From Faecalispora sporosphaeroides DSM 1294 (lineage in GTDB: Bacteria; Bacillota; Clostridia; Oscillospirales; Acutalibacteraceae), in the NCBI RefSeq assembly GCF_000383295.1, contig NZ_KB911066.1, forward strand, positions 546,836 through 578,835: a stretch of 32,000 nucleotides of DNA, read 5' to 3'. Position 1 is the first letter of the stretch. Each line of letters opens with the position of its first letter. Position numbers and translations under genes: made by a program. Positions 12,492 through 32,000 of this stretch are shown in pieces. The notes below the pieces were generated by a model, which saw nothing but the letters and a program-made list of their open reading frames with translations, ran no database searches and was not told the DNA's origin.

Positions 12492-12566
12492 ACTAACATC
12501 CTCCATTTCTTCAATAGAAAAATATATAACAGAAAAATTTCTGTTAACGATAAAGGATTCCCGTTT

Positions 12567-12584: not shown

Positions 12585-12599
12585 TCCTTTGCAGCAAAT

Positions 12600-16825: not shown

Positions 16826-16926
16826 CCGGAGCAATCGCCCCGATGAACAGATACCAAACGGAGCGCGTCCCTTCCCCGCCCGCGGCGGAGAATATGCCGG
16901 CGCACTGCCGATCAAAGGAGGAAGCT

Positions 16927-18132
16927 ATGAAACTGACAGCACAAGAGCAAGCCATGCTCGACGGAGAATATGGAACCGGAGTTCAGCTGGCCATGAAGGT
17001 GCAGGTTGCGGTGGGCGAAAGCTACGACGCACCTTACATGGTACCCATTACCCGGGCTCACGTGGCTCTGAGCAATCAGGAGGCCGACCTGTGGTTTGTG
17101 GAAAAGCTCGTCAACGGCGGCGCCGTTTGCCGGGTTCGCCCCACGGTAAACCCCAGCTTCAACTGGGAGCAGTTCAAGGAGTTTACCACGTTGGAGGCGG
17201 AGGACGAAGAAATCGTGCGGCGTACGCACGAGGCCTACAAAAAAATCGGCGCGATCATGACCTACAACTGTACCCCCTACCTGGAAAAGAACGTCCCCCG
17301 CTTCGGGGAGATCACCGCGTTTTCGGAATCCAGCGCCACGCCGTTTGTCAATTCGGTGTACGGAGCCAGAAGCAACCGGGAGGCCGCCGTCAGCGCCCTG
17401 TGCGCCGCCGTGACCGGCGTGGTGCCGTATTACGGCTATCTGCTTAACGAGAACCGCAGGGGCCAGATTCTGGTGGAAGTGGAAGCGGAAATGAAAAGCG
17501 ATTTCGATTATCAGCTGCTGGGGTACTGCACCCCGAAAAAGACCGGCTTTAAGCTCCCCGTGTTCAGCGGATTGAAAAATCCCGGGAAAGAAGCGCTGAT
17601 GAATCTGGGGGCGCAGCTCAATACCGGCGGAAATGTGGCGATGTACCATATTCTCGGCTTTACGCCGGAGGCCCAAACCATGGAGGCCGCCTTTCAGGGC
17701 AAAGAGCCGGAGGCGGTGGTCAGAATCACGCAGGAGGATCTGGACATCATGCGCGGTGAGCTGACGGATCCCTACGGCAAAATCGACTTTGCGCTCTTCG
17801 GGTGTCCTCACCTGACGATCGACCAGATCGCGACGGTCGCCGGGATGGTTCAGGGGAAGCGTCTGGCGGTGCCGCTGTTTATCATGACCTCCTCGCTTTC
17901 TTACGTGCTGGCGGAAAAGATGGATTACATGCGGATCATACGCGAGGCCGGCGGCTGGATCGTTTCGGACACATGCATGGATCAGCCCTGTTGGAAGTTC
18001 CTGTATGGCAAAAAGGGAGTTACGGATTCCCCAAAATGCGCTTACTACACCCGCCGCCGCCAGATGCAGTTTGTGATTACCGAGCTGGAAAACGCCGTAA
18101 CGGCCGCTTTGGAAGGAGAGATTACCCTATGA
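16927..18132 (+). CDS. Aconitase X large (catalytic) subunit, DUF521
   Basis: Met at 16927 (MKLTAQEQAMLDGEYG) follows AAGGAGG. About 400 aa with segments TRAHV, FGCPHLT and SDTCM that I associate with DUF521/AcnX. The ORF-track start at 16843 is an extension. Confidence 0.8.
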   Translation: MKLTAQEQAMLDGEYGTGVQLAMKVQVAVGESYDAPYMVPITRAHVALSNQEADLWFVEKLVNGGAVCRVRPTVNPSFNWEQFKEFTTLEAEDEEIVRRTHEAYKKIGAIMTYNCTPYLEKNVPRFGEITAFSESSATPFVNSVYGARSNREAAVSALCAAVTGVVPYYGYLLNENRRGQILVEVEAEMKSDFDYQLLGYCTPKKTGFKLPVFSGLKNPGKEALMNLGAQLNTGGNVAMYHILGFTPEAQTMEAAFQGKEPEAVVRITQEDLDIMRGELTDPYGKIDFALFGCPHLTIDQIATVAGMVQGKRLAVPLFIMTSSLSYVLAEKMDYMRIIREAGGWIVSDTCMDQPCWKFLYGKKGVTDSPKCAYYTRRRQMQFVITELENAVTAALEGEITL

Positions 18133-18551
18133 GCAAGACGTTTGAGTGCCATAAGATTTCGGAGGGTCAGGCCAAGGGCGAGGTGCTCATTTCTACCGAC
18201 GATTTCTGCTTTTATCTGGTCGACCCGCAAACCGGGGTGGTCATCGAAAAAAATCACTGTCTGTACGGGCAGAGCATCGCGGGCAAAATTCTGCTGTTCC
18301 CCAACGGAAAGGGCAGCTCCGTGGTGCAAACAGACGGTATGTTTCAATTAAAGATGAAGGGCACCGAGCCCAAGGCGCTGGTGATTCAGAATCCGGACAC
18401 CACCCTGGTGGCAAGTGCGATTTTGATGGAAATGCCGATGGTGGACCGGCTGGAGCCCGAGTTCTACCAAACCGTTCAAAACGGCGATTTGGCGGAGCTG
18501 GACGCCACAAACGGAGTGCTGAAGCTGCTCGGCAGGGAGGAGCGCGAATGA
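18129..18551 (+). CDS. Aconitase X small (swivel) subunit, DUF126
   Basis: Met at 18129 (MSKTFECHKISEGQAKGEVL) sits inside ORF 17802..18551, with an ATGA overlap onto the large-subunit stop. Segment GKILLFPNGKGSSV is typical of DUF126. 140 aa. Confidence 0.8.
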   Translation: MSKTFECHKISEGQAKGEVLISTDDFCFYLVDPQTGVVIEKNHCLYGQSIAGKILLFPNGKGSSVVQTDGMFQLKMKGTEPKALVIQNPDTTLVASAILMEMPMVDRLEPEFYQTVQNGDLAELDATNGVLKLLGREERE

Positions 18552-19513
18552 AGCCGCTGTTCTGGTTTATCGACGAGGAATGGAAGGACTACGATATAGA
18601 AACCGCCGTTCTAAGAGAGCAGTACCCCGACTGTGAGCTGAAATTTTCCAATTATAATTACGAACGCGATCTGGAGGAATTCGGGTACCGTGCGGACGCA
18701 ATTATCGCGCAGGTGTACGCGCAGATTCCCGCCTCCACCATACAGCGCCTGCAAAGCTGCAAGGGAATCGCCGTACTTGGCGGCGGCTACGACCGTGTCG
18801 ACACGGCGGCAGCCCGGGAAAAGGGGATCTGCGTCACCAACGTGCAGGGCTACTGCGCGGAGGATTTGGCGGATTACGTTCTGGCGGCCATCTTCCATTT
18901 TTATAAGGGATTGACCGAATACCACAGCAAACTGCAAAGCGGAGCATGGGGCGCACAGGCAGTCGAGCGGCTGCCGAGGCGGATTTCACACTCTACGCTG
19001 CTCATCGTCGGATGCGGGCGGATCGGCCTCACCGTCGCAAAGCGCTGTCAAAGCCTTGGAATGAAAATCCTCGGCTACGACCCTGACCGGGACGCCGCCT
19101 TTTTGAAGGAGCGGGGCGTGAAAAAGGTTTCTTTGGAAGAAGGCTTGCGTTTGGCCGATTATGTGAGCGTCAATGTGCGGCTGGACGAAAGCACCGCCGG
19201 TCTTTTGGGAGAGCAGGAGTTTTCCCTCATGAAGAAAAGCGCGTATCTCATCAACACGGCCCGCGGCGCCGTTCTGAAAGAGGATGAGCTGATCCGCGCG
19301 CTGGAAGCCGGCACAATCGCCGGCGCGGTGCTGGATGTCATCACGCATGAGCCGCCCCGGGAGCAGGAACCGATTTTCAGCGCGCCAAATTGTGTGGTCA
19401 CACCGCACGTTTCGTACATTTCGCAGGAATCCTTTGAGGAGCTGCGCGGCCGGGCCGCCTGGAACGCCATTCAAATGCTGCGCGGGGAACAACCGGCAGA
19501 CCTGGTGAACTGA
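18548..19513 (+). CDS. D-isomer-specific 2-hydroxyacid dehydrogenase family protein
   Basis: ATGA overlap with the upstream gene. Motifs LLIVGCGRIGLTVA, INTARGAVL, LDVITHEP and VTPHVSY. Confidence 0.85.
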   Translation: MKPLFWFIDEEWKDYDIETAVLREQYPDCELKFSNYNYERDLEEFGYRADAIIAQVYAQIPASTIQRLQSCKGIAVLGGGYDRVDTAAAREKGICVTNVQGYCAEDLADYVLAAIFHFYKGLTEYHSKLQSGAWGAQAVERLPRRISHSTLLIVGCGRIGLTVAKRCQSLGMKILGYDPDRDAAFLKERGVKKVSLEEGLRLADYVSVNVRLDESTAGLLGEQEFSLMKKSAYLINTARGAVLKEDELIRALEAGTIAGAVLDVITHEPPREQEPIFSAPNCVVTPHVSYISQESFEELRGRAAWNAIQMLRGEQPADLVN

Positions 19514-19689
19514 GTTTTTCGCCTTTATGAGGGGGCATGCTCTTTCATAAAAATACAGCTTCGCTTGAAAACGGACTGCGGCTTCTCCTCCTGCGGCGGA
19601 AAAGCCGATGACCTCTCAAACAGGCCATTTCAAGGGAAAGCACAACACATGCGAAAATGAAATTGAGACAGGATGAAGGAGAATCTACT

Positions 19690-20748
19690 ATGAGAAAAGC
19701 ATCTGCAAAAATTATTTCTCTGGCTCTAGCCGCCGCCATGAGCACTTCGCTTCTGGCCGGCTGTTCCGGCGGCAGCACAAGCAAGGCCCCGGCGGAAAGC
19801 GGCGCCGCCTCGCAGAGCGCGGCATCCGGCGGCGTTTACGACGGTACCGTCACGCTGGCGCATTCCAGCTGGATCGGCTTCTACCCGCTTGATCTGGCTG
19901 TGGAAAAAGGGTTCTTTAAAAATCACGGCGCAGACGTAAAGGTAGAAATCATCGAAAGCAAATCCGACAGCAAAAGTGCTCTTGCCGCCGGCAAAATTCA
20001 GGGCATTGCCACCTCGCTGGATACCAACATCATGAGCGCCGCCAGCGGAATCGACCTGCAGGTGGTTCTGGCGCTCGACACCTCCTCCGGCGGCGACGGC
20101 CTGGTTGCGAAAAAAGAGTTTAAAAGCTTTGAGGATCTGAAGGGCAAGACCATCGCGCTCGACACAACCGGGGGCGCGAGCTTCTTCTGGTTCAACTACC
20201 TGCTCAAGGAAAAGAACCTGTCCATGAGCGACTTTGACGTGCAGTCCATGGGCTCCGGCGACGCGGGCGCCGCGTTTGCCGCCGGCAAGGTGGACGCCGC
20301 CATGACCTGGCAGCCCTGGCTCGACAACGCAAAGAAAACCACCTTCGGCCAGGTACTGCTCTCCAGCAGCGAATATCCCGGCGTTATTGTGGACGCTCTC
20401 GGCCTGAGCACCGATTTCGTCCAGAAATACCCCGAGACAACGCAGGCCATCATCGACGGCTGGAACGACGCGATCGATTACATGAAGAGCAACCCGGACG
20501 ACGCGTATAAAATCATGAGCGTACCCGCGGGCATGAAACCGGACGCCCTGAAAGCCGCCTGCGAAACAGAGGTTCAGTTCTACGACAAGGCCGGCAACAA
20601 GAGCTATTTTGGAACCGCGGAAAACAAGGGCGACATTTACAAAATTTCTGAATTTGCCGCACAGCTTTGGGTCGACACCAAAATGGTAAGCAGCAAAGCA
20701 GATATTGATAAGGTACTGAATTCCACCTTTGTGAACGCCGCCAAATAA
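19690..20748 (+). CDS. NitT/TauT-family (NMT1/SsuA-like) ABC transporter substrate-binding lipoprotein
   Basis: Met at 19690 (MRKASAKIISLALAAAMSTSLLAGC) follows GAAGGAG. It has a lipobox and an Ala/Ser/Gly-rich linker. The body resembles aliphatic sulfonate / taurine / pyrimidine-precursor binding proteins. Confidence 0.8.
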   Translation: MRKASAKIISLALAAAMSTSLLAGCSGGSTSKAPAESGAASQSAASGGVYDGTVTLAHSSWIGFYPLDLAVEKGFFKNHGADVKVEIIESKSDSKSALAAGKIQGIATSLDTNIMSAASGIDLQVVLALDTSSGGDGLVAKKEFKSFEDLKGKTIALDTTGGASFFWFNYLLKEKNLSMSDFDVQSMGSGDAGAAFAAGKVDAAMTWQPWLDNAKKTTFGQVLLSSSEYPGVIVDALGLSTDFVQKYPETTQAIIDGWNDAIDYMKSNPDDAYKIMSVPAGMKPDALKAACETEVQFYDKAGNKSYFGTAENKGDIYKISEFAAQLWVDTKMVSSKADIDKVLNSTFVNAAK

Positions 20749-20782
20749 CAGGCAGGACAATCGAAATAAAACCCATCCTTCT

Positions 20783-20809
20783 CTGGGGAGAGCGCTCCGC
20801 TCTCCCCAG
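20783..20809 (+). other. Intercistronic hairpin downstream of the SBP gene
   Basis: CTGGGGAGAGCG (20783-20794), ctc, CGCTCTCCCCAG (20798-20809). The stem is perfect. Confidence 0.6.
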
Positions 20810-20882
20810 GAGATGTTGTTATTTGGAGCAAAGTGTGCCGCAGGGAACGGCAGACGGCGCCCTGACGAAAGGAGCTCGTGCT

Positions 20883-21755
20883 ATGGCAGAAAAAACGACG
20901 GCGGTTCCCGCCGCGGCCCTGACCACAAAATCCGCAAAACGAGAAACGGGGAACAAATCGATGTTTGGCGATAAAATAACAGCAGCCTTTCAGCCAAAAG
21001 GGAAAATCAAACAAAATACCGCCATGATTCTCGGCATTGTGGCCTTTCTTCTCATTTTGATTTTATGGAGCGGCCTGAGCTACGGAAAAATGGTCGATCC
21101 GCTCTTTTTACCCACCCCTACCGCCACTCTTCAGGCAAGCCTGCAGCTGTTTGGCAGCGGCTTCTGGACGGACATCGGCATGACGGTGTTCCGCGTAATG
21201 ACCGGATTTGTCATCGCGGCGGTCGTGGCGATTCCTCTGGGGGTGCTCATCGGAACCTACGCGCCGATCTCGGCCTTTTTTGAGCCGGTGTTTTCGTTCG
21301 TGCGCTATATGCCGGCCTCGGCCTTCATTCCTCTGTTCATCTTCTGGATCGGCATCGGCGAAAGCGAGAAGGTCGCCATCATCATTCTGGGCAGCCTGCC
21401 GCAGCTGGTTCTGATGACCGCAACCAACATCCGCAACGTGCATTCCTCGCTGATCGAGGTTTCGTACACGCTTGGCACCAACCGCAAAAACGTGCTGTGG
21501 AAGGTCATCCTCCCCAAGGCGATGCCGGATATTACCGACACGCTGCGCATCGTGCTCGGCTGGGCCTGGACGTACGTGATCGTGGCCGAAATGGTGGGCG
21601 CGTCCTCCGGCATCGGCTTTAAGATTCTGCAGGCGCAGCGCACCGTGGACGTGGGAAAAATCTTTGTGGGGATTCTGATTCTTGGCCTGATCGGCCTGAT
21701 GATCGATAACCTGCTGCTGTTCCTGAACAAAAAGCTGTACCCGTGGAACGAATGA
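20883..21755 (+). CDS. NitT/TauT-family ABC transporter permease
   Basis: Met at 20883 (MAEKTT) follows AAAGGAG. Polytopic protein with a BPD_transp_1-type region. The start is less certain; alternatives are the TTG at 20823 or a downstream Met. Confidence 0.8.
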   Translation: MAEKTTAVPAAALTTKSAKRETGNKSMFGDKITAAFQPKGKIKQNTAMILGIVAFLLILILWSGLSYGKMVDPLFLPTPTATLQASLQLFGSGFWTDIGMTVFRVMTGFVIAAVVAIPLGVLIGTYAPISAFFEPVFSFVRYMPASAFIPLFIFWIGIGESEKVAIIILGSLPQLVLMTATNIRNVHSSLIEVSYTLGTNRKNVLWKVILPKAMPDITDTLRIVLGWAWTYVIVAEMVGASSGIGFKILQAQRTVDVGKIFVGILILGLIGLMIDNLLLFLNKKLYPWNE

Positions 21756-21774
21756 CAGAAAGAGAGGGATTGTT

Positions 21775-22593
21775 ATGCAGACAGCGGTAATGGAAACCAC
21801 CGCCAAGCGCCCACATCAGGGGCTTGAAATCAAGAACGTCTCAAAGCTGTTTCAGAGCGAGAAAGGCCCGGTAAAGGCTCTCGATGGAATTAACCTCCAC
21901 GTGCGCTCCAAGGAATTTTTAACCCTGCTGGGAACCTCGGGCTGCGGTAAATCCACGCTGCTGCGCATCATTGGCGGGCTCGAAACCGCCAGCAGCGGCA
22001 CCATCAGCTATAAGCAGCAGGAGCTCAGGGGCGCGGGCTCGGACAGAGGCATGGTGTTCCAGAATTACACCCTCTTCCCGTGGCTGACCGTTCTGGAAAA
22101 CATCGAATTCGGATTAAAGCAGAAAAACGTGCCCGCAAAGGAGCGCCGGGAAATCGCGGAAAAATATGTGGACCTGGTCGCGCTGCGCGGCTTTGAATCG
22201 CTGTACCCCAAATCGCTTTCCGGCGGCATGAAGCAGAGGGTGGCAATTGCCAGAGCGCTGGCCAACGACCCCGATATTCTCCTGCTGGACGAACCGTTCG
22301 GCGCGCTGGATATGCAGACCCGCGAGCTGATGCAGGAGCTGCTGCTGAATGTATGGCAGCAGTCCCCGAAAACGATCATTATGGTCACACATGATATCGA
22401 CGAGGCGATTCTTTTGGCAGACCGCGTGGTGGTCATGTCCGCAAGGCCCGGCCGGGTCAGAGAGATCATCGACGTGGGGCTTGAGCGACCCCGCGATCAC
22501 CACACCCGCCTGACGCAGGAGTTTTTGCAGTATAAGGAGCGCGCCTCCGAACTGATCCGCGAAGAAAGCCTGCGCCTGATGAACGCGATCTGA
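21775..22593 (+). CDS. NitT/TauT-family ABC transporter ATP-binding protein
   Basis: Walker A GTSGCGKST, signature LSGGMKQRVAIARAL, Walker B ILLLDEPFGALD, H-loop VTHD. Confidence 0.9.
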   Translation: MQTAVMETTAKRPHQGLEIKNVSKLFQSEKGPVKALDGINLHVRSKEFLTLLGTSGCGKSTLLRIIGGLETASSGTISYKQQELRGAGSDRGMVFQNYTLFPWLTVLENIEFGLKQKNVPAKERREIAEKYVDLVALRGFESLYPKSLSGGMKQRVAIARALANDPDILLLDEPFGALDMQTRELMQELLLNVWQQSPKTIIMVTHDIDEAILLADRVVVMSARPGRVREIIDVGLERPRDHHTRLTQEFLQYKERASELIREESLRLMNAI

Positions 22594-22617
22594 TCCCTTC
22601 AGAAAAGAGGTGCCGTT

Positions 22618-23202
22618 TTGATTCAGCTGATTCCGCGCGCGCGGCAAAAAACGACGAAATGGTCGGGAGGGGAAACCTCTGAGCTGTTTATTGATCCGCC
22701 GCAGGCTTCGTTAGCGGCACAGGATTTTCTCTTTCGGATCAGCACCGCCTCGGTTGCCTGCGGTGCCAGTGAGTTTACCCTGTTCCCGCAAAAGCAGCGA
22801 ATTCTTCTTTTGCTGGAGGGGGACATCACGCTGACCTTTCGCGAGGGAGAAAGCATCCGCCTGAAGCCGATGCAGAGCGCCGCGTTTTCCGGCGCGTGGC
22901 ATACCCAGAGCCGGGGAACCGGGAGGAATCTCAACCTGATCCTCTTGCCGTCTGCCAAAGGGTCTGTTAAAGTGATAAAGCTCCGCCCCGGAAAAGTGTG
23001 GCGTTTTTCGCCGCAAACCCGCTTTACCGGGCTGTATTTCCCGTTCGGTTCGGCACACGTGACCGCCGGGGATTCCGGCTATTCCATACAAAAAAGAGAT
23101 TTCTTGTTGATTTCCAATCCTGCAGAAGGTATGATATTTGATGTGGATACGCTCTGCGAGCAGTATCTGATCATGACGGGAGTGGAGCTTGATGACCAAT
23201 AG
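22618..23202 (+). CDS. HutD/Ves-family protein (cupin-like, function unknown)
   Basis: TTG start follows AAGAGGTG. The N-terminal KWSGGETSELFIDPP matches the W-x-G-G-x-T-x-E signature of HutD. About 190 aa. Confidence 0.7.
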   Translation: MIQLIPRARQKTTKWSGGETSELFIDPPQASLAAQDFLFRISTASVACGASEFTLFPQKQRILLLLEGDITLTFREGESIRLKPMQSAAFSGAWHTQSRGTGRNLNLILLPSAKGSVKVIKLRPGKVWRFSPQTRFTGLYFPFGSAHVTAGDSGYSIQKRDFLLISNPAEGMIFDVDTLCEQYLIMTGVELDDQ

Positions 23203-24073
23203 AAGGGCAGCCTTGCAGACAGAACCGATTCAATTTTTAATTGCCAAGCTGTCTGCCGCGGCAAAGGAATCTGCCACTTACGAAAAACTGGCTTATTATA
23301 TAGAAAAGAATTATATGCGCGTCATTTTTATGACCGCCGTCGATGTGGCGCTGGACGCCAAGGTGAGCCAGGGCAGTGTTTCGCGTTTCTGCATGGCGCT
23401 CGGCTATAACGGCTATAATGAGTTTCAGCGCGAGCTGCAGAAAAGCGTCAGCGAAAAGATAACCGGACCCCAACGGCTGAATTATGTACTGAAGGATCGG
23501 CACAGCGCGGTCGGCGACATTCTCTCGAGCGAAGTGAATAATTTAGTGGAGCTGGAAGCTTCCATCGGCGGCCCCGCCTATGAAGCTCTGGTGAATATGG
23601 TGGCAAACGCGCGGGATTTGATACTGCTGTCGTCCAGAATGTCCGCCACCCTGCTGCCCTATATGCAGTATATTTTGAACAAGCTGCGCAACAATGTCTA
23701 CACGGTAACGCCGGAAACCCCGGCGTGGAATACGCTGGAATACCGCGACCCCAAGGATACAGGGATCGTTCTGCCGATTTTCCCCCGTTATCCGGATGCT
23801 TTGCTGAAAAAAGCGCGGGCGCTCAAAAACGGCGGCTTTCGGATCATTGCCGTTACGGACAGCCTGCTCTCCCCCATCTGCCAGATCGCGGACGAAACCA
23901 ATGTGGTTCCCATCACTGTGGCTTCGCTGTTCGACATTTACAGCACCCCCATGGTTTTTATGAACCTTGTCTTTCGGGACGCGGCCAAAAAGATTCCCGA
24001 TGTAAACGCGCGGCTGGAGCAGATCGAGCTTCAGGAAAAAAGCTCCGGCGTTTATCATATCTCCGGCCGCTGA
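23189..24073 (+). CDS. MurR/RpiR-family transcriptional regulator (HTH_6 + SIS domain)
   Basis: Overlaps hutD-like by 14 nt. HTH region AVDVALDAKVSQGSVSRFCMALGYNGYNEFQ, followed by a SIS-like C-terminal half. Confidence 0.85.
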   Translation: MMTNRRAALQTEPIQFLIAKLSAAAKESATYEKLAYYIEKNYMRVIFMTAVDVALDAKVSQGSVSRFCMALGYNGYNEFQRELQKSVSEKITGPQRLNYVLKDRHSAVGDILSSEVNNLVELEASIGGPAYEALVNMVANARDLILLSSRMSATLLPYMQYILNKLRNNVYTVTPETPAWNTLEYRDPKDTGIVLPIFPRYPDALLKKARALKNGGFRIIAVTDSLLSPICQIADETNVVPITVASLFDIYSTPMVFMNLVFRDAAKKIPDVNARLEQIELQEKSSGVYHISGR

Positions 24074-24309: not shown

Positions 24310-26475
24310 ATGGATATGATCGCGGAGCTGTCAAAGGAATTCCGCCTGAACCAGCAGCATGTGGGGAACATCATTACACTGATCGACGACGGGAATACCA
24401 TTCCGTTTATTGCGCGGTACCGCAAGGAAATGACCGGCTCCTGCGACGACCAGGTTCTGCGCGAGCTGTCGGACCGCCTGCAATACCTGCGGAACCTGGA
24501 AAAGCGCAAGGAAGAAATTTTAGAGAGCATCGCGGCGCAGGGCAAAATGACCGACGCGCTTTTCCTCGCCGTTCAAAGCGCGAAAACACTCGCGGAAGCG
24601 GAGGATTTATACCGGCCTTACCGCCCCAAGCGCCGCACCCGGGCCACCATCGCGCAGGAAAAGGGCCTGCGCCCTCTGGCCGACCTGATCATGGCGCAAA
24701 CACAGCGCGGTACCACACTGGAAAAGCTTGCCGCTCCCTATGTCAATCTGGAAAAGGGTGTGGAATTCTGGGAGGATGCGGTGCAGGGCGCGCAGGATAT
24801 TCTGGCCGAGGAGATTTCAGACGACGCGGAGATGCGAAAAAAGCTGCGTCAGATCATACGAAGGGACGGGCTTGTGGTATCCCGCGCCGTTCAGGAAAAC
24901 CCGGTGTATGAAATGTACGCCGAATATTCCGAGCCCGTCAGTAAAATACCGAGCCACCGGATTCTGGCGATTGACCGCGGAGAAAAGGAAGAATGCCTGA
25001 AAGTAAAGCTGGAGCTGAACGATGTGCCCGCGCTTGCGGCCTTGTGCGATCGGTTTGTAAAACTTGGCAGCGTCACCTCTGCCTGCGTCAAAGGGGCCGC
25101 GGAGGATTCCTGGAAACGCCTGATTCTCCCCTCCCTTGAGCGAGAAATCCGGAACGAATTGACGCAGCGGGCGGCCAAGCAGGCGATCTCGATGTTTGCC
25201 CTGAATTTAAAGCCCCTTCTGCTCCAGCCCCCGGTGAAGGACAAGGTGATCATGGGCTTTGACCCCGCCTACCGCACGGGCTGCAAGATCGCGGTGGTGG
25301 ACGCGACCGGCAAGGTGCTGGACACCACCGTGGTGTACCCCACCCCACCCCACAAAAAGGTAGAAGAAGCAAAGCGGGAGCTCAAGCGCCTGATTGTCAA
25401 GCACGGCGTCACAATCATTTCGATCGGGAACGGCACCGCCTCCAAGGAATCCGAAATCTTTGTGGCAGAGCTCCTGCGTGAGCTGGAAACGCCGGTCAGC
25501 TATATGGTCGTCAGCGAGGCCGGAGCCTCGGTGTATTCGGCGTCAAAACTGGCCGCCGCGGAGTTCCCCGAGTTCGACGTTTCCCTGCGCAGCGCGGTCT
25601 CGATTGCGCGCAGGCTGCAGGACCCCCTGGCGGAGCTGGTAAAAATCGACCCCAAAGCCATCGGGATCGGCCAGTACCAGCACGACATGCCGCCCGCCGA
25701 GCTGGACAGCGCCCTGGAGGGCGTGGTGGAAAGCTGCGTCAACAGCGTGGGGGTCGATTTGAATACGGCGTCCGTCTCACTTTTGACTCACATTTCGGGC
25801 CTGAACGAAACGGTCGCCAAAAATGTGGTCGCCTACCGGGACGACAACGGGCCGTTCCAGAACCGCAGCCAGCTGAAAAAGGTTGCGCGGCTCGGGCCGA
25901 AGGCCTACGAGCAGTGCGCGGGCTTTCTGCGGATTCCGCGGGGAAAGAATATTCTGGACAACACCTCTGTCCACCCGGAATCGTACGATGCCGTCACAAA
26001 GCTTTTGGAGCTGCTCGGGAGGAAGCCCTCCGACCTGACAATGCAGGGAGTGGGCACGGTGTCGCAGCAGATTGAGAAGATCGGCTGGCAGAAGGCTGCC
26101 GCAGCCTGCGGCGTCGGCATTCCCACGCTGACCGACATCGTCGCCGAGCTGCAAAAGCCGGGACGCGATATCCGCGACGAGCTCCCCCCGCCGCTGCTGC
26201 GAACGGATATCATGAGCCTGTCTGACCTGAAAGCCGGGATGGAGCTGACCGGCACGGTGAGAAACGTCACCGATTTCGGCGCGTTTGTCGACATCGGCGT
26301 GCATCAGGACGGGCTGGTACACATTTCGCAGATGTCGGATCATTTTATCAAGCACCCGTCCGATCTGGTGAAGGTCGGTGATGTGGTACAGGTTACGGTG
26401 CTCAGTGTGGAGGAAGCGAAAAAGCGCATCTCCCTGACAATGAAGCGCACGGAAGCACAAAAAGCAAAGGCGTGA
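24310..26475 (+). CDS. tex: Tex-like transcription accessory protein (YqgF/RuvC-like, HhH and C-terminal S1 domains)
   Basis: Segments FIARYRKE, GFDPAYRTGCK, GIGQYQHD and the S1 domain GTVRNVTDFGAFVDIGVHQDGLVHISQM. An extended -10 TGGTAAAAT lies upstream. Confidence 0.92.
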   Translation: MDMIAELSKEFRLNQQHVGNIITLIDDGNTIPFIARYRKEMTGSCDDQVLRELSDRLQYLRNLEKRKEEILESIAAQGKMTDALFLAVQSAKTLAEAEDLYRPYRPKRRTRATIAQEKGLRPLADLIMAQTQRGTTLEKLAAPYVNLEKGVEFWEDAVQGAQDILAEEISDDAEMRKKLRQIIRRDGLVVSRAVQENPVYEMYAEYSEPVSKIPSHRILAIDRGEKEECLKVKLELNDVPALAALCDRFVKLGSVTSACVKGAAEDSWKRLILPSLEREIRNELTQRAAKQAISMFALNLKPLLLQPPVKDKVIMGFDPAYRTGCKIAVVDATGKVLDTTVVYPTPPHKKVEEAKRELKRLIVKHGVTIISIGNGTASKESEIFVAELLRELETPVSYMVVSEAGASVYSASKLAAAEFPEFDVSLRSAVSIARRLQDPLAELVKIDPKAIGIGQYQHDMPPAELDSALEGVVESCVNSVGVDLNTASVSLLTHISGLNETVAKNVVAYRDDNGPFQNRSQLKKVARLGPKAYEQCAGFLRIPRGKNILDNTSVHPESYDAVTKLLELLGRKPSDLTMQGVGTVSQQIEKIGWQKAAAACGVGIPTLTDIVAELQKPGRDIRDELPPPLLRTDIMSLSDLKAGMELTGTVRNVTDFGAFVDIGVHQDGLVHISQMSDHFIKHPSDLVKVGDVVQVTVLSVEEAKKRISLTMKRTEAQKAKA

Positions 26476-26617
26476 GTTTCGTTTGATCATACGTTTTCTA
26501 ACTTTATTCCGGATGCGAAAAATCAGATAGAACTGATAAAAAGGCGTATCGAGCCGATGCTTGAGGTCTGTGAATCCTAGCACCAGACCATTTTTTTAAA
26601 ATATCCAGAACAATTAA

Positions 26618-26663
26618 AATCGCATGGCCGGCAAACCGAAATACGGCTGCCGGCCATGCGATT
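26618..26663. terminator. Bidirectional terminator between convergent tex and ribokinase
   Basis: Perfect 16-bp stem AATCGCATGGCCGGCA (26618-26633) / TGCCGGCCATGCGATT (26648-26663). T-rich flanks on both strands. Confidence 0.8.
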
Positions 26664-26776
26664 GATTCTATATTTGATTTATTTGAGGAGGCATATTCAG
26701 GCCTTCACATCCCGTGAAAGCATAGGACAATCCGATTCTCAAATTCCTTGATAACACAAAACGCCAGTCATTCGGC

Positions 26777-27673
26777 TTATGTTATGCAGGATAGCTTGGC
26801 GCTGAGCACCTCCTCCCGCCATGGGATGGAGGGAATGGCTCCCTTGCGGGAAACCGCCAGAGAGGACGCGATGGACGCAAGCCGCAGGCATTCCTGCGGG
26901 GAATCACCCCTTGCGACCCCGGAGAAGAAATAGCCGGTAAAGGTATCCCCCGCCGCTGTGGTGTCCACCACGGGAACGTTGTAAATACCGTGGTAAAAGC
27001 GCTGCCTGCCAGCCTGATACACCGCTCCGGCTTTCCCTAAGGTTAAAACGGTGTGAACCTGCGGGTACCGCTTTTGAATCTGCTCGAGTACGGCATCGGG
27101 ATCACGCTCGCCTGTGATCTGGCTGCCCTCAACCTCGTTCATCATCAGCCAGTGTACCTTGTGAAGATCACATCGCTTCACCGCATCGTCGTACGGGGAA
27201 GGGTTCAGCGCGATTTTCATCTTTCGCTGTGCCGCACGTTCGATGAGATAATCGAGCAGGTTGATCTCATTTTGGAGAAGCAGCAGATCGCCCGCTCCAA
27301 AATGAGAGAGCACTTCGTCGACATACGCTTTCTCATTTCTCCGGTTGGCCCCGCCGAACAGAACAATGCTGTTCTGCCCTTTGCCGCTCACCTGAATGAT
27401 CGCGTTGCCGCTGCGTTCCTCCACAGTACGGATCAGGGAGAAATCCACATGATTTTCTTCGCAGGTCTTGCGGAGCATTCCACCGTCTTCCCCCAGCATT
27501 CCCGCATGGAACACCGTGGCGCCGCCCCGGGCCATCGCAACCGACTGGTTCAGGCCTTTCCCGCCGGGGTAGACATTCAGCTGCGTGGAGGAGATCGTTT
27601 CGCCGGGGGCGACGATGTGATCTACGGAATAAACATAATCAATATTGAGCGAACCAAAGTTCAGGATTTTCAT
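26777..27673 (-). CDS. rbsK: Ribokinase (PfkB family)
   Basis: Met at 27673 (MKILNFGSLNIDYV) follows AGGAGG. Motifs PGGKGLNQSVA and DTTAAGDTFTGYF. Confidence 0.88.
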   Translation of the reverse strand: MKILNFGSLNIDYVYSVDHIVAPGETISSTQLNVYPGGKGLNQSVAMARGGATVFHAGMLGEDGGMLRKTCEENHVDFSLIRTVEERSGNAIIQVSGKGQNSIVLFGGANRRNEKAYVDEVLSHFGAGDLLLLQNEINLLDYLIERAAQRKMKIALNPSPYDDAVKRCDLHKVHWLMMNEVEGSQITGERDPDAVLEQIQKRYPQVHTVLTLGKAGAVYQAGRQRFYHGIYNVPVVDTTAAGDTFTGYFFSGVARGDSPQECLRLASIASSLAVSRKGAIPSIPWREEVLSAKLSCIT

Positions 27674-27874
27674 TCGATTTCCTCCTTTCTTTCCAGCAAA
27701 GCACTGTTTTATCATCAATTCACTTTAGTATGGGCCAATGCAGCTGCCAAGGTCTATTCCCCGCCTGCGGTGGAGAAAGAGACCAATGATTGCTTTAAAG
27801 CCTTTGTTACTGTGCGGCGTTTCTTTCTTTTCGCTTCATTTCCTAGAAAGACGCAGCCGGTAAGCCGACAGATC

Positions 27875-28192
27875 TTATATCTCTACCAGCAGCTCCATCA
27901 GCGGGGCGTGCTGCTGCGCGCCGTATACGTCTCTGTCAAAGCTGGTGCCGGATGAAATCCGGCGGGCAAACGTGATCTTGAACCCGAGCGCCGGGTCAAA
28001 AAACACGATGTTGGTGATCAGGCTTTCGGGAATGTGATACAGCTCTGCCACCAGCGCACGGTTGATGACACCGCTTTCTTTGATCTTCCGGTAGATTTGT
28101 TCGTCGTCGAACAGGCAGTCCAGCGTCATTTCAAAGGGCCCGCTGTTTTTGGAGCGCAGCACCTTCGCGCATTCATACAGCCGCTTTTTCAT
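27875..28192 (-). CDS. DUF4387 domain protein
   Basis: Met at 28192 (MKKRLYECAKVLRSKNSGPFEMTLD) overlaps the upstream stop by 4 nt. About 105 aa. Segments SKNSGPFxxTLD and DVYGAQQH are as I recall for DUF4387, which usually follows DUF1446. Confidence 0.7.
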   Translation of the reverse strand: MKKRLYECAKVLRSKNSGPFEMTLDCLFDDEQIYRKIKESGVINRALVAELYHIPESLITNIVFFDPALGFKITFARRISSGTSFDRDVYGAQQHAPLMELLVEI

Positions 28193-29565
28193 TGCGCGCC
28201 GCCCCCTTTCCATTCTTCCACAGGGAACATCTCTTCCCCGTCCCGCACATCCATCAGGTGGTACAGAGAAAATTCGTATACCCTGCCGAAGGGCACGTCG
28301 CTCGGCGCAAACGGAAACGCCAGATTCCCCGCCGTGGATTTGCGGCCCTCGTACCCGTAATGCAGAAACGTAGAGCGCACCGTGGAGCAGATGGTATCGG
28401 CCAGCTCCTGCGTTTTGGCGATTACCTCGAACACCACGCCCACCTCATGCGGAAGGTCGCGGCAGGGCTCCATCTCGCCCATCACGCCGTTGATGCCGTA
28501 ATTGATAAAGTTGATTTGGTACTCGCTTTCGTTTACATCGCTGTAATAGTCGCGCACCTGTGCTTTTACCTTATCCTGCACCTCTTCCAGCCGGCCGATC
28601 AAAAGCGGGTCGCGGATACCGGCCACGACAAAGGTGCGAAACGCAACCGGCATGGCCCCTTCCAGCTTGATGCGGTAGGGATTGGTTTTCTCGATTCGGC
28701 TGCCGGTAACAAAAACGCTTCGCCCATCCTCGAGCTCGGTAAAGGTGCAGTGCTCCAGATTCAGCACAATGCCGGGGCCGTGCAGAAGATAGGGATGATC
28801 TTTTTCGTAAAAGGTATGGGCCGCAACCGAGGTTTTTGTGCACACCCGGTCTTTCGATAATGGAGTGACGATAAAGCCATCCTCACGGATGACGCCGAGC
28901 ATGCAGTCCTTGGTGGTGCCGGGCTGTGCGCACAGCGCCGCGCATTCCAGAATTTTGCCCGCGTGGTAGCCGTAGGCCAAATCGAACCCGTGGAACACGG
29001 CAACGGCGGCAAAGGGCGAGGGATCGTAGGCGCGGCCGCAGACGATGATGTCCGCCCCCTGCTCCAGCGCCCGCACAATCGGCTCATGGCCCATTTGCGC
29101 CACGATGCCCGTTGTTTTCTCAATGCGCTCCGGGGTGAGCTCGCCCACGGTCAGGCCCAGCGGGTCGATCTTCCCCTCGCTCAGGCGCTGCTTGACGACC
29201 TCTTTCTCTATATCGGCCCAAATGACGGTGAGCTTCAGATGCCGGAGCTCGTGCTCCTTTAATATTTCCTCTATGATCGAAAGCGTCCACTCCACGTGAA
29301 CGCGGCCTCCCGCCCCACCGGCGGAACCGATCACCACCGGAATCTTCGCCCTGGCGCCGTTCGTGATCATAATTTCCAAATCCTTTTTGCAGGCACGGCG
29401 GCTGACGATTGCCACCCCGGCCCCAAGCTTATGGGGGCCGGCGTCCGTGCTGCCCGCATCCACCACAATCGCGTCGGGATTCATTGCCATCCCGTTCAGA
29501 AAAGAGCTTTCCGGAAATCCATACCCGAGGATTCCGCAGGGGGAAAGCAGCCTGAGCTCTTTCAT
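28189..29565 (-). CDS. DUF1446 / AtuA-like (acyclic terpene utilisation family) protein, function unknown
   Basis: ORF 28189..29565 with AAAGGAGG upstream. The N-terminal RLLSPCGILGYGFPE...VVDAGSTDAGP and the ~458 aa length fit the DUF1446 family. Confidence 0.7.
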   Translation of the reverse strand: MKELRLLSPCGILGYGFPESSFLNGMAMNPDAIVVDAGSTDAGPHKLGAGVAIVSRRACKKDLEIMITNGARAKIPVVIGSAGGAGGRVHVEWTLSIIEEILKEHELRHLKLTVIWADIEKEVVKQRLSEGKIDPLGLTVGELTPERIEKTTGIVAQMGHEPIVRALEQGADIIVCGRAYDPSPFAAVAVFHGFDLAYGYHAGKILECAALCAQPGTTKDCMLGVIREDGFIVTPLSKDRVCTKTSVAAHTFYEKDHPYLLHGPGIVLNLEHCTFTELEDGRSVFVTGSRIEKTNPYRIKLEGAMPVAFRTFVVAGIRDPLLIGRLEEVQDKVKAQVRDYYSDVNESEYQINFINYGINGVMGEMEPCRDLPHEVGVVFEVIAKTQELADTICSTVRSTFLHYGYEGRKSTAGNLAFPFAPSDVPFGRVYEFSLYHLMDVRDGEEMFPVEEWKGGGAQ

Positions 29566-29567
29566 GT

Positions 29568-31670
29568 TTATTCCTCCTTTACGGTGAAATCTCCAAAGGC
29601 GGTGCGGCCGATGCTCAGCGAACCACAGCCGAACATGCCGTATTCATAGGAATCGTCTTTGGCGGAAAGCATCTCTTTCCCGTCGACCAAAAGGGTGATC
29701 GTATCGCCAACGGCTTTGAGCGAGAGCTCATAAGCCTGCTCCTGCTCCCACCCGAACGCGGCGCTGCCGAGCTCGCGGTAGCCAAAATCATTTTTGTACA
29801 GCTTCACGGTTCCGTCCGCGGCGAGACCTCCGGCGTAGCCGCGCATCGCGCCCTGCGCGCGGATGGTAAGCAGGTGGCTGTCGCCGTTGAGCGGCGTAAC
29901 CGGGGCCGTAACGGTGTAATCCGCCGCGTAGTAATTGCCCGCGTAGGCAAAGGCCGGCTCGCAGCGCATCAAAAGCAGCCGGCTGCCCTCCAGATCCCAC
30001 GCGCCGTGGTCGAACGAGAAGGGCGTCACGCAGCCAAACTCCGTTTTCTGCTTCGCGAGGGCAATGCGGTACTCGCTCTTCCCGGTAATCGAGAAATCAT
30101 CCAGATACAGCATTCCGAGTGTTTTGGATTTTGCCGGGGAGTAGCCTTCGATCACGATACCGACCTCATCGACCATATCGCCGTCGGTATCCGGAATCCG
30201 GAAGGAAACCTCCAGCCATTTGCCCTGCTGAAGCTTGATGTAGCCCTGCAGATGATCCTTTTTATCGCTGGTGGTGCGCACGTAAGGCGCGATGCCGATG
30301 GTCTCCCAGCCGTTCCACTGGTCCAAATACAGCTTCATGGAAACGATCTGGCCCGGGTAGGCGGTCGGCGTGAAAACAGGGCTGTACCGCTCATCTGAAA
30401 AATCGTCGCGGCGGTAGAACGGCTTGTAAAACAGCTTGCACTGGTGGCCGCGCTCCATGCGGTCCACCAGCACCTTCAAAGAGCCGGTGCCGCTTGCCGC
30501 CTGCTCGGTGGAATGCCAGGTGCGGCAGAAGAACGGGTCGGACACGCGCATGTTGTGCGTGGAGCCGGGCAGCTCAAAATCGAAATGAACCTCGCCCTGA
30601 CGATAGGAATCGCTGATTTCGGCGGGCATCTCTTCCCCTGCAATACGGTAGCCCAAAGCGGCGACCTCTTTGCAGTAGGTGGGGACATCCAGAATATTCA
30701 GGTAACCGGAAATACCGGAAAGCACAAGACCGTCATTGATCGGGCCGCGGTAGCGCTCCGGCAGCCCATCGATGCCGCACGCCACGCCCAGCACAGTGCC
30801 GACGTTCCCGGCGTTGCAGTCGGTATCCCACCCGCACATGGTGGCAATCTCCACCGTGCGCGCAAAATTCCCCTGCCCATACGCCATTGCTAGGATGCAC
30901 ACACCGGCGTTCGGAATGATATGGCATACTCCGCCGTATTTGTCGTAGCCCCAGTCGTCCACCAGCATCTGGTGGCAGGCCCGCCAGTCCTCCGGGTGCT
31001 CTGCGTGGAAACGCAGTACCGCGTCGGCAACCCGTCGGTACAGGGAGTCCTCCGGGATTTCCGCAAACCCGGCGCTCATGATCTCGTTGATGTCGCTGGT
31101 TTCAAATGCCTTTGCAATTGCGGCGCAGAAGAAGCGCGCCCCGTAAACGCCCTCACCGTCGTGAGAAACGCTGGCCGCCGCCGCGCCGTACTCCGCCGCG
31201 CGGTGCGGCTCGCAGGGGTTGACCAGACCCCATGTATCAATAAAGATCTGCCCGCCAATCTGCTCGGCAATCGTCTTGCCGTTCTGCTGGATCGAGCCGG
31301 AGCGCGGAGCGGGAATGCCCGCCTTCAGGTTCAGGTACGCGGTGTGCTCGGTGCTGCGGCCATAGCCGCCCCACCAGAACATGCCCACGCCTTCGCGCGC
31401 ATAATTCAGCCAAGCTCTGGCCACATCCTGCGGTTCCAACGGACGGTCAGCCGCGTCATCGTACAGCGCTCTTAAAAAATAAACAGGGCCGTTTACATCG
31501 TCGTCGGCTGCGAAATTTTTAAAGTCCTTTACATAGTCCGTAATCTCTCCATATGTATTTCGGATGCGCTCATAGGTCCAAATGGTCGGTTCCACCGGAG
31601 CGCCGAGCCGAATGCCGATGTTCATTCCCAAAAATCCGGAATAAACCTTTTCGAGATAATCCTTGATCAT
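29568..31670 (-). CDS. ADP-ribosylglycohydrolase-fold protein with a ~350-aa beta-rich C-terminal extension
   Basis: Met at 31670 (MIKDYLEKV) lies 7 nt after GGAGG. Segments FAADDDVNGP and the metal-site-like CGWDTDCNAGNVG are typical of the ARH/DraG fold. No signal peptide. The stop lies 2 nt before the DUF1446 ATG. Confidence 0.8.
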   Translation of the reverse strand: MIKDYLEKVYSGFLGMNIGIRLGAPVEPTIWTYERIRNTYGEITDYVKDFKNFAADDDVNGPVYFLRALYDDAADRPLEPQDVARAWLNYAREGVGMFWWGGYGRSTEHTAYLNLKAGIPAPRSGSIQQNGKTIAEQIGGQIFIDTWGLVNPCEPHRAAEYGAAAASVSHDGEGVYGARFFCAAIAKAFETSDINEIMSAGFAEIPEDSLYRRVADAVLRFHAEHPEDWRACHQMLVDDWGYDKYGGVCHIIPNAGVCILAMAYGQGNFARTVEIATMCGWDTDCNAGNVGTVLGVACGIDGLPERYRGPINDGLVLSGISGYLNILDVPTYCKEVAALGYRIAGEEMPAEISDSYRQGEVHFDFELPGSTHNMRVSDPFFCRTWHSTEQAASGTGSLKVLVDRMERGHQCKLFYKPFYRRDDFSDERYSPVFTPTAYPGQIVSMKLYLDQWNGWETIGIAPYVRTTSDKKDHLQGYIKLQQGKWLEVSFRIPDTDGDMVDEVGIVIEGYSPAKSKTLGMLYLDDFSITGKSEYRIALAKQKTEFGCVTPFSFDHGAWDLEGSRLLLMRCEPAFAYAGNYYAADYTVTAPVTPLNGDSHLLTIRAQGAMRGYAGGLAADGTVKLYKNDFGYRELGSAAFGWEQEQAYELSLKAVGDTITLLVDGKEMLSAKDDSYEYGMFGCGSLSIGRTAFGDFTVKEE

Positions 31671-31783
31671 TTTGTAGCCTCCCAATCGTTTCACTTATTG
31701 ACGGCAATGCCGCTAGAAAAGCCGTTGTTTTTACACAGACTCCCTTTGCAAGCGGATGCATTTTAAGAAACCGGTTACTCAGT

Positions 31784-31812
31784 ATTATACTCATTCTTTT
31801 GTCGCTTTTCAA
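31784..31812 (-). promoter_or_regulatory. Strong sigma-A-type promoter for the ARH-DUF1446-DUF4387 operon (TTGAAA-N17-TATAAT)
   Basis: On the minus strand, TTGAAA is at 31812-31807 and TATAAT at 31789-31784. This leaves a ~105-nt 5' UTR before the ATG at 31670. Confidence 0.65.
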
Positions 31813-31895
31813 GAGGCGTTATCCATAAAAATACGATAATTCTATGGTTATTGTCCTTAAATTTCTGTGGGAATCGGGAATAAAAAAGAAACCGC

Positions 31896-31925
31896 TTGCT
31901 TTTTGTTTCTCAGTTTGTTTATAAT
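31896..31925 (+). promoter_or_regulatory. Divergent promoter candidate TTGCTT-N18-TATAAT
   Basis: TTGCTT at 31896-31901 and TATAAT at 31920-31925. Downstream, GGAGGG plus an ATG at 31994 suggest a + strand gene that starts at the very edge of the window. Confidence 0.45.
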
Positions 31926-32000
31926 AGGACAAAAGAAAGTTGCAGGCGCAGCGCGTTTGAGGCGCCTGGATTCGGCCGTTTGGAGGGAAAAGCATGCAGA

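Follow-up and report, generated by a model that had tools for sequence, protein, structure and literature searches.

Near one end of a 32,000-nucleotide stretch of the Faecalispora sporosphaeroides DSM 1294 genome (contig NZ_KB911066.1, positions 546,836–578,835; this whole stretch is referred to as the window) four minus-strand genes lie behind a promoter. They specify, in this order, a long ARH-fold protein, an AtuA (DUF1446) protein, a DUF4387 protein and a PfkB-family kinase. The closest described relatives of the middle two are the subunits of the citramalate lyase CmlA/CmlB, the title under which PDB entries 9ERQ and 9EVF are deposited. The Cml enzyme of Raoultella planticola splits citramalate directly to pyruvate and acetate (10.64898/2026.01.16.699985; enzyme from I. 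Berg). Our literature search returned no primary paper on CmlAB; it found a preprint in which the enzyme is used and a 2015 note on a DUF1446 gene beside methylaspartase. In the Enterobacteriaceae DUF1446 is located downstream of methylaspartate ammonia-lyase (PMC4682846), and we found the same arrangement in Prevotella.

The pair in the window resembles CmlAB in its layout, an AtuA protein of about 455 amino acids followed by a DUF4387 protein of about 105, in being 50% identical to it and, presumably, in an acetate-releasing C–C cleavage which requires neither coenzyme A (CoA) nor acyl carrier protein (ACP). It differs in the company it keeps. The characterised type and its proteobacterial relatives of roughly 50% identity occur beside genes for methylaspartate ammonia-lyase or fumarate hydratase/mesaconase, whereas in the window locus the pair is accompanied by ARH hydrolases, an ABC importer of sugar type and a ribokinase. 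The same overall cleavage is achieved by the sequence-unrelated CitDEF lyase, which yields acetate and a 2-oxoacid from acids of the citrate/citramalate type and which requires 2'-(5''-phosphoribosyl)-3'-dephospho-CoA and the accessory proteins CitC, CitX and CitG. CitDEF is absent from the window but replaces AtuA/DUF4387 in eight related loci.

Ribose scavenging with ARH-type enzymes has a parallel in the Rus loci of the Bacteroidetes. As described in the passages of the source covered here, these combine one or more ribokinases and a regulator, LacI being the second commonest type, with variable hydrolases, including ADP-ribosylglycohydrolases and nucleoside hydrolases, which are proposed to free ribose from diverse ribose-containing nutrients (10.1101/574913). 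On that description the scavenging logic, a ribokinase plus variable hydrolases, is common to both. Rus loci, however, are polysaccharide utilisation loci of the SusC/SusD type, marked by a rusC/rusD pair, rusK ribokinase genes and the permease RusT, whereas the window locus belongs to a Firmicute and employs a Gram-positive CUT1 ABC importer; the passages mention no lyase module for Rus, and the long ARH of the window has a specific tandem β-sandwich extension. Escherichia coli yegTUV, the function of which was still unestablished in 2024 (PMC10819704), is comparable in gene make-up, having a transporter, the ARH-fold protein YegU, the PfkB kinase YegV and a dedicated repressor, GgaR/YegW. 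Its transporter, however, is an MFS (NHS-family) protein of nucleoside type, and it possesses one short ARH, no lyase and no lectin-like domains.

The ARH proteins of the locus have the all-helical fold of ARH3, DraG and ARH1 and, like them, conserved acidic residues where the binuclear metal site is situated; unlike that of ARH3, their context indicates a small imported metabolite and not an ADP-ribosylated macromolecule. The C-terminal domain of the long ARH matches, by profile and by fold, CBM66 of the Bacillus subtilis levanase SacC, a fructan-binding module. In the window this domain is joined to a cytoplasmic ARH-fold enzyme rather than to a secreted GH32 enzyme.

On balance, and with some reserve, we favour the reading that the locus imports a riboside of a citramalate- or citrate-like acid and breaks it down into ribose-5-phosphate, acetate and a 2-oxoacid. 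Catabolic loci for the scavenging of glycosides or ribose are known as a kind of system, and the substrate is probably novel. What appear to be new are the tight coupling of ARH proteins to a lyase of the CmlAB or CitDEF type, the architecture of the long ARH and the class of metabolite which these imply. An initial annotation of this DNA had proposed a route in which RbsK phosphorylates ribose freed from a ribosylated metabolite, with either the aglycone or a ribose derivative as the substrate of DUF1446/DUF4387. The points of this route that could be tested are consistent with it, and the findings below give it a sharper form.

The putative lyase genes and their conservation beside the long ARH

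The four genes of the minus-strand operon are:

29568–31670, minus strand: long ARH gene, 700 amino acids (Pfam ADP_ribosyl_GH, E = 3.8e-53)
28189–29565, minus strand: AtuA/DUF1446 gene, CmlA homolog, 458 amino acids (Pfam AtuA, E = 1.3e-27; PDB 9erq_A)
27875–28192, minus strand: DUF4387 gene, CmlB homolog, 105 amino acids (Pfam DUF4387, E = 2.6e-36; PDB 9erq_B)
26777–27673, minus strand: gene for a PfkB-family, ribokinase-like kinase, 298 amino acids (Pfam PfkB, E = 8.7e-46)

The window AtuA is 50% identical to PDB chain 9erq_A over 442 amino acids (residues 4–445; E = 7.8e-140), and residues 1–101 of the DUF4387 protein match 9erq_B, "Citramalate lyase, subunit B (cmlB)" (E = 4.1e-25). In view of these strong matches to a structurally characterised citramalate lyase, the statement in the initial annotation that DUF1446/DUF4387 has no established function is outdated.

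The neighbourhood of the long ARH was compared in one genome per species. At least 588 of the genomes scanned possess a long-ARH homolog; the best 80 were analysed with 10-kb flanks, which were complete at 57 loci, and neighbours were counted with tblastn at a query coverage of at least 50%. Among the 57 full-flank loci a CUT1 binding protein together with both permeases lies within 10 kb of the long ARH in 55, a short ARH in 51, AtuA plus DUF4387 in 45, CitDEF in 7, a lyase of either type in 52 and a PfkB kinase in 42; 35 have the whole gene set. When all 80 loci are considered AtuA and DUF4387 adjoin the long ARH in 58, in three phyla and several gene orders, so that the linkage on which the initial annotation had built its cluster is conserved. 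AtuA and DUF4387 are always found together (58 of the 58 loci having either).

The loci belong to Oscillospiraceae, Lachnospiraceae, Clostridiaceae, Paenibacillaceae, Bacillaceae and Halanaerobiales, and to the spirochaetes Sphaerochaeta and Rectinema. In Lacrimispora and Paenibacillus the genes form one co-directional operon; in Faecalispora they are arranged as divergent operons. LacI regulators are present at 36 of the 80 loci and GntR/FCD regulators at 34, and some Paenibacillus loci have AraC regulators or LacI–PfkB fusions. Other recurrent neighbours, among them an AraC regulator, a chemotaxis receptor, a type VII secretion ATPase and an ABC ATPase, were considered as missing pathway enzymes and set aside as regulators or unrelated genes. 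A gene for a methyl-accepting chemotaxis protein adjoins the cluster at 12 loci, mostly of Paenibacillus (L034, 13073–14770, and 11 others); this could reflect chemotaxis toward the substrate or a coincidence among related genomes.

Clustering of all open reading frames (ORFs) from the 80 loci brought to light genes for CitD, CitE and CitF. They occur at 8 of the 22 loci without AtuA (L014, L016, L019, L035, L037, L039, L043 and L064) and at none of the 58 with it (Fisher p = 1.1e-5), and in most cases they follow immediately after an ARH gene of the same orientation. Three of these loci (L037, L039 and L043) also have CitC and a CitX–CitG fusion. CitF and CitD score above the NCBIfam citrate-lyase cutoffs. 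Two lyase systems which are unrelated in sequence and share an overall reaction thus fill the same slot, and this provides independent support for an acetate-releasing step. Their mutually exclusive use is at the same time independent comparative support for the new CmlAB function.

The AtuA proteins linked to the cluster are 58–96% identical to that of the window as against about 50% for the characterised type, and therefore make up a somewhat separate group. No fumarase/mesaconase, methylaspartase or glutamate mutase was found in the window or at the 80 loci. On Klebsiella and Neorhizobium plasmids, AtuA–DUF4387 pairs approximately 50% identical to the window AtuA adjoin a fumarate hydratase gene, the product of which, because of its size of about 500 amino acids, we take to be a class I, mesaconase-like enzyme. 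Such a neighbour is consistent with the sequence mesaconate, citramalate, cleavage. Several alcohol and aldehyde dehydrogenases surround these pairs (L089, 7986–16045, Klebsiella; L090, 724–11195, Neorhizobium), and the Neorhizobium plasmid additionally carries a P450, an aminotransferase and an agmatinase; the two gene sets suggest oxidative routes from branched C5 compounds via mesaconate and citramalate.

Transcription signals, regulator and importer

The following signals flank or interrupt the operon:

31812..31784, minus strand: sigma-70-type promoter, TTGAAA-17 nucleotides-TATAAT, agreeing with the consensus at 11 of 12 positions
31766–31779: LacI-type operator-like palindrome, AGTAACCGGTTTCT, 5 nucleotides downstream of the -10 hexamer
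31887–31900: second operator-like palindrome, AGCAAGCGGTTTCT, with two mismatches to the site at 31766–31779
31994–32000, plus strand: first 7 nucleotides (ATGCAGA) of the divergent gene for a LacI-family regulator
27674–27874, minus strand: spacer of 201 nucleotides between the DUF4387 and kinase genes
26612–26663, minus strand: intrinsic terminator, a G+C-rich stem of about 20 base pairs followed by a U-run

The promoter is the best-scoring site within 26400–32000. At a threshold of 9/12 this region contains five promoter-like sites against 3.2 expected, and the 11/12 site alone stands out. It is situated 114 nucleotides upstream of the long-ARH ATG, within a divergent intergenic region of 323 bp, and the ATG itself (31670) is preceded by GGGAGG. 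The junction of the long-ARH and AtuA genes reads AAGGAGGAATAAACATG: the ARH stop codon TAA (29570–29568) is separated by two nucleotides from the AtuA ATG at 29565, and a Shine-Dalgarno sequence sits within the 3' end of the long-ARH gene. AtuA and DUF4387 overlap by four nucleotides (the ATGA of GCAATGA, the DUF4387 ATG being at 28192). The promoter, both of these spacings and the gap of about 200 bp before a ribokinase gene on the same strand had all been read by the initial annotation, and each is confirmed here.

The spacer ahead of the kinase gene contains a weak 9/12 promoter-like site (27750..27722) and a 5-bp hairpin without a U-tract; it folds no more stably than shuffled sequence (z = 0.16), and we found no convincing terminator between DUF4387 and the kinase gene. 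The terminator that follows the kinase gene is strong (z = -6.6; none of 200 shuffles folds equally well). It is situated where the kinase and Tex genes converge, and probably acts in both directions. The simplest reading is that the four genes are one transcription unit which ends at 26612–26663 and which would include the kinase gene, with a minor internal promoter possible. The 5' untranslated region of the operon folds no better than shuffled sequence, and an Rfam search for a riboswitch or leader RNA over 26000–32000 at E ≤ 1 returned a chance snoRNA match only.

The genes beyond position 32000 were taken from contigs of the same genome (L004–L007), which specify an identical ARH protein and across 4 kb share 99.6% identity with the window; the LacI gene (L004, 8670–9677) corresponds to window position 31994 onward. 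After LacI come two CUT1 ABC permeases, a 507-amino-acid SBP_bac_1 lipoprotein, the binding protein (L004, 4814–6337), and a short ARH of 328 amino acids. With the four genes of the minus-strand operon these make up a conserved set of nine. The cluster recognised by the initial annotation is thus real, but the window contains only one half of it; importer, second ARH and regulator are all located past its end. Among solved structures the binding protein is nearest, though distantly, to AlgQ1/2 and the 5GUB group (E = 1e-10 to 1e-12), whose ligands are acidic oligosaccharides, and FCD-type regulators, like those at the 34 GntR/FCD loci, usually sense carboxylates; both may be taken as weak hints of an acidic substrate.

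The best NCBIfam match of the LacI regulator is RbsR. Six matches to the operator-like palindrome, which has a central CG and the general form AG(T/A)AACCGGTT(T/A)CT, are present in the window as against 1.34 expected, and both good ones fall in the divergent intergenic region. The palindrome was spotted by eye and afterwards counted and compared; an inverted-repeat scan of the intergenic region yielded an AT-rich pair only. In other genera it recurs 50–150 nucleotides upstream of the long-ARH gene and before the permease operon, and at least eight loci have it before both operons (L012, L013, L014, L016, L019, L035, L037 and L039). This is the signature expected of a LacI repressor controlling both as one regulon, and we regard the palindrome as a putative, conserved LacI operator.

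The ARH proteins and the kinase

The long ARH consists of three parts:

30636–31670, minus strand: N-terminal ARH-fold catalytic domain, about residues 1–345 (Pfam, Foldseek)
30051–30593, minus strand: middle β-sandwich, about residues 360–540 (AlphaFold2 model m1e00e6020a77, Foldseek)
29568–30026, minus strand: C-terminal CBM66-like β-sandwich, about residues 549–700, and stop codon (profile, Foldseek)

Its catalytic domain covers positions 2–287 of the 287 in PF03747 with 181.5 bits (gathering score 26.2); the match comprises residues 20–314 of a 708-amino-acid ORF call, or approximately 12–306 of the 700-amino-acid protein. The initial annotation was therefore right in calling an ARH fold, but it missed the remaining 390 or so residues with their two lectin-like domains. 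An AlphaFold2 model based on 38 homologs (mean pLDDT 80.7, pTM 0.83) shows a helical ARH domain and then β-sandwiches at about residues 360–540 and 550–700. The catalytic part resembles ARH3 (6g1q_B; Foldseek target-normalised TM-score 0.73) at 14–15% identity, and it has no PDB sequence match at E < 0.01. For the middle domain Foldseek returned β-sandwiches of lectin and CBM type. Residues 549–687 match the levanase CBM66 structures 4b1l, 4azz and 4b1m in a search of the PDB with a family profile (E = 7e-7), and the fold agrees with CBM66 as well (Foldseek target TM 0.74–0.81, root-mean-square deviation 1.8–2.2 Å, 20% identity).

Eight residues, E27, D56, D57, D58, D282, T283, D284 and C285, are invariant in the 38 long-ARH homologs. 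From their positions in the motifs we take the acidic ones to be equivalent to the binuclear metal ligands of ARH3 and DraG, which comprise an N-terminal Glu, a vicinal Asp-Asp and the acidic residues of a C-terminal DxD[T/S] motif. The initial annotation had made its proposed route hinge on the metal-binding Asp and Thr residues of the ARH protein, and the acidic set (E27, D56–D58, D282 and D284) is indeed kept throughout; the motifs are the variants AADDD and WDTDC, in which the flanking Thr is replaced by Ala and Cys.

An exhaustive HMMER search of 1.84 billion representative proteins with the tandem β-sandwich module gave 498 cluster representatives, almost all of about 700 amino acids with the module at residues 357–700. 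The tandem module is a signature of the long-ARH subfamily and essentially confined to it. Since it is found almost only in ARH proteins of this length or in their fragments, its distribution gives no hint as to its ligand.

The short ARH (328 amino acids) retains STDDTE (TDDT) and DADT (DxDT) motifs and scores about 62–64 bits against the NCBIfam models Tri1 and DraG, far under their cutoffs. On direct reading neither ARH N-terminus resembles a signal peptide. The counts given above for the short ARH merge two subtypes, one of about 328 amino acids, 60–76% identical to that of Faecalispora, and one of about 390–405, which is 24–37% identical to it and occurs mainly in Paenibacillaceae; most loci of that family have the longer form at 24–30% identity. 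Three loci (L037, 2843–13278; L039; L046) have three ARH-fold genes each, of the 328-, the approximately 387–407- and the 700-amino-acid types. The presence of two or three ARH genes per locus suggests more than one linkage, and the substrate may have several distinct ribosyl linkages. Directly downstream of the short ARH in the same three loci, which are of the CitDEF-type group, lies a gene for a membrane protein of about 360 amino acids (L037, 1717–2808); reading its sequence we take it to be of the AbrB family, and it may be an acid transporter.

The window kinase has the sequences GSLNIDYV, GGKGLNQS and TAAGDTFTG, which we presume to correspond to the ribose-binding and catalytic motifs of E. 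coli RbsK (GSxNxD, GGKGxNQ and AAGD with the catalytic Asp). Kinases at the equivalent position in L037, L010, L061, L071 and L084 attain 302–363 bits with the ribokinase model TIGR02152, above its cutoff. The window-type kinase is present at 17 loci and a canonical ribokinase at 23, and no locus has both. The RbsK assignment of the initial annotation thus holds insofar as ribokinase is the best match and the positional equivalents pass the cutoff, but the window kinase itself remains under it. D-ribose is most likely the sugar.

Two variant loci, L071 (3316–12100; Lacrimispora defluvii) and L079 (Hungatella sp.), have neither a short ARH nor a lyase. There a long ARH 55% identical to that of the window closes an operon in the order LacI, canonical ribokinase, IUNH-type nucleoside hydrolase, Bmp-type binding protein, ABC ATPase, two permeases, long ARH, which suggests a second class of substrate of nucleoside type, such as O-ribosyl nucleosides. 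An unusual fusion of about 645 amino acids, a LacI-type DNA-binding and sensor protein joined to a full PfkB kinase, heads the cluster in Gordoniibacillus (L003, 1661–3595), Paenibacillus (L040, 1692–3644, and L041) and some Lachnospiraceae (L042 and L045).

Proposed pathway, alternatives and remaining genes of the window

We propose that an acidic riboside would be taken in by the CUT1-type ABC importer and that its ribosyl linkages would be cut in the cytoplasm by the two ARH-fold hydrolases of 700 and 328 amino acids, the long form perhaps cutting a ribose–ribose or terminal ribosyl bond with the help of its CBM66-like domain. The ribokinase-like PfkB protein would then phosphorylate the released D-ribose. 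The hydroxy-acid set free would be split by the AtuA/DUF4387 heteromer, acting as a CmlAB-type lyase independent of CoA and ACP, into acetate and a 2-oxoacid. The acid would be citramalate, in which case the 2-oxoacid is pyruvate, or something closely related to it, for instance citrate; any 3-hydroxy acid that has a -CH2-COO- arm would fit. The steps from hydrolysis onward, including the role of both ARH proteins as riboside hydrolases and of the acid as the aglycone, we infer from homology and context.

Several observations weigh against this proposal. Literature searches turned up no natural riboside of citramalate or citrate, nor do we know of one, so that the substrate is hypothetical. 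To our knowledge the substrates of all characterised ARH-fold enzymes are ADP-ribosyl conjugates, as opposed to small ribosides in free form. With TIGR02152, which has a cutoff of 299.65, the window kinase attains 212.4 bits, although this is still its best NCBIfam match. At 50% identity to CmlA the type of reaction is probably kept by the lyase, but its substrate specificity is not guaranteed, and CitE, at 308 bits, lies below the citrate-lyase beta cutoff of 443, so that citramalate, citrate or another acid are all possible. The binding protein bears a weak resemblance to those that bind acids. In the model of the long ARH pLDDT falls below 50 at residues 26–57 and 93–104, a region which includes D56–D58. 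Finally, no lyase was found within 10 kb in three full-flank loci of CUT1 type (L013, L030 and L033).

The lyase might instead have as its substrate a ribose derivative or a carbon skeleton that stems from an unusual branched or acidic sugar (e.g. a tertiary-alcohol sugar acid), for which the ARH proteins would be the furanosidases. The affinity of the C-terminal domain to CBM66, a binder of terminal fructofuranose, the relationship of the binding protein to acidic-oligosaccharide binders and the divergence of the window kinase, below the ribokinase cutoff, would all suit such a substrate. We nevertheless think it unlikely: the canonical ribokinases that take the place of the window-type kinase in 23 loci point to plain D-ribose, and replacement by CitDEF requires acetate release via acyl-ACP exchange and therefore a citrate- or citramalate-like acid. 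We know of no sugar acid with an acetate-releasing structure of that kind, and among the ORF families of the 80 loci the cluster has no dehydrogenase or isomerase leading from sugar to acid. It is likewise improbable, in our judgement, that the ARH proteins scavenge ribose from oligo-ribosyl or nucleoside material (e.g. ribosyl-adenosine or disaccharide nucleosides) while the lyase, as a separate acid-fermentation function, merely travels along. ARH3 does cleave ribose–ribose bonds, up to three ARH genes occur per locus (L037, L039 and L046), and L071 and L079 join the long ARH to an IUNH-type hydrolase, a Bmp-type transporter and RbsK without any lyase. Yet a lyase of either type is present, inside the operons, in 52 of the 55 CUT1-type loci; in the window it is translationally coupled to the ARH gene; no gene for uptake of the free acid is consistently present; and two unrelated lyases in the same niche are hard to explain unless they share a flow of substrate.

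That the ARH proteins reverse ADP-ribosylation of protein or nucleic acid, in regulation or defence, and have unrelated metabolic neighbours would accord with the activities of ARH1, ARH3, DraG and Tri1 on ADP-ribosylated macromolecules or O-acetyl-ADP-ribose, and with the match of the short ARH to Tri1 and DraG, weak and far below the cutoffs as it is. This is very improbable: under a single LacI operator the ARH genes are tightly linked, and linked in a conserved manner, with those for an ABC importer, a ribokinase and a lyase; no ADP-ribosyltransferase partner recurs among the neighbourhood gene families, PADLOC returned no anti-phage defence match for any of the five proteins submitted, and a sequence search of the PDB gave no relative for the catalytic domain of the long ARH. 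Most strongly disfavoured is a chance placement of a CmlAB enzyme for glutamate or mesaconate fermentation beside a ribose-scavenging operon. Its homologs in Proteobacteria and Prevotella do have neighbours related to methylaspartate or mesaconate and lack ARH genes in their vicinity; against this, AtuA and DUF4387 accompany the long ARH in 58 of 80 loci, across three phyla and several gene orders, only two nucleotides part the ARH gene from AtuA, with a shared Shine-Dalgarno sequence, and no locus contains a mesaconase, methylaspartase or glutamate mutase.

Under the favoured reading, uptake and cleavage of an acidic riboside, a substrate should give plain ribose and an acetate-releasing acid, and it should be a compound that a CUT1 importer takes up. 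Judged by reasoning, the following candidates failed these joint constraints: aceric acid, Kdo or Dha from rhamnogalacturonan II, Rib-Kdo capsular polymers, ribosyl-adenosine from poly(ADP-ribose), methanopterin fragments, 3-hydroxy-3-methylglutaryl glycosides, GlcN-malate from bacillithiol, citrate siderophores and the citrate-lyase prosthetic group. We tentatively suggest, as a possibility on which we would not yet insist, that many Firmicutes and some Spirochaetes eat undescribed ribofuranosyl (possibly di- or oligo-ribosyl) conjugates of citramalate- or citrate-type acids, the ARH proteins being small-molecule riboside hydrolases and not de-ADP-ribosylating enzymes, the long form holding the furanose by means of its CBM66-like module, and the CmlAB-type lyase acting last. 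At least 588 species genomes, among them those of human-gut Oscillospiraceae and Lachnospiraceae and soil Paenibacillaceae, contain the locus, so that the substrate is likely to be a common nutrient. The locus offers a testable biochemical setting for ARH proteins that lie beside sugar kinases, E. coli YegU included, for AtuA/DUF4387 lyases outside glutamate fermentation and for the lectin-like module of about 350 residues. Identification of the substrate would define a new class of metabolite or a new ribose-scavenging route, and would extend the chemistry of the ARH fold beyond ADP-ribose.

The remainder of the window contains further catabolic genes. On the plus strand, 51–7587 specifies, at the start of the window, a PdxA-like dehydrogenase, the gene for which may lack its 5' end as the best stretch covers profile positions 61–320 only, and further an IolO-like epimerase (218 bits, cutoff 300), an Asp/Glu racemase-like protein, a split transketolase, a second xylose-isomerase-like TIM barrel, a D-2-hydroxyacid dehydrogenase and a glycerate kinase. 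An aldo-keto reductase, a CUT2 ABC importer and a LacI regulator are specified on the minus strand at 7852–13664. These are two further sugar or sugar-acid catabolic units, the genes of which recall tetrose, apiose or acid-sugar pathways.

The operon-like run at 14225–24073 (plus strand) codes for an ErtE-like N-carbamoyl-amino-acid amidohydrolase (371 bits, cutoff 520), a TRZ/ATZ-type amidohydrolase/deaminase, an aconitase X (cis-3-hydroxy-L-proline dehydratase-like), a 2-hydroxyacid dehydrogenase, an NMT1-type ABC importer, an RpiR regulator and a protein of 194 amino acids without an NCBIfam match, of which a copy in the same genome is annotated as Pfam HutD. It may serve in the catabolism of a hydantoin-, ureido- or imidazole-type compound. 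The lowest G+C content of the window, 0.444 as against 0.52–0.61 elsewhere, is that of positions 13001–14000, around the intergenic region between the LacI gene (12600–13664, minus strand) and the M20 amidohydrolase gene.

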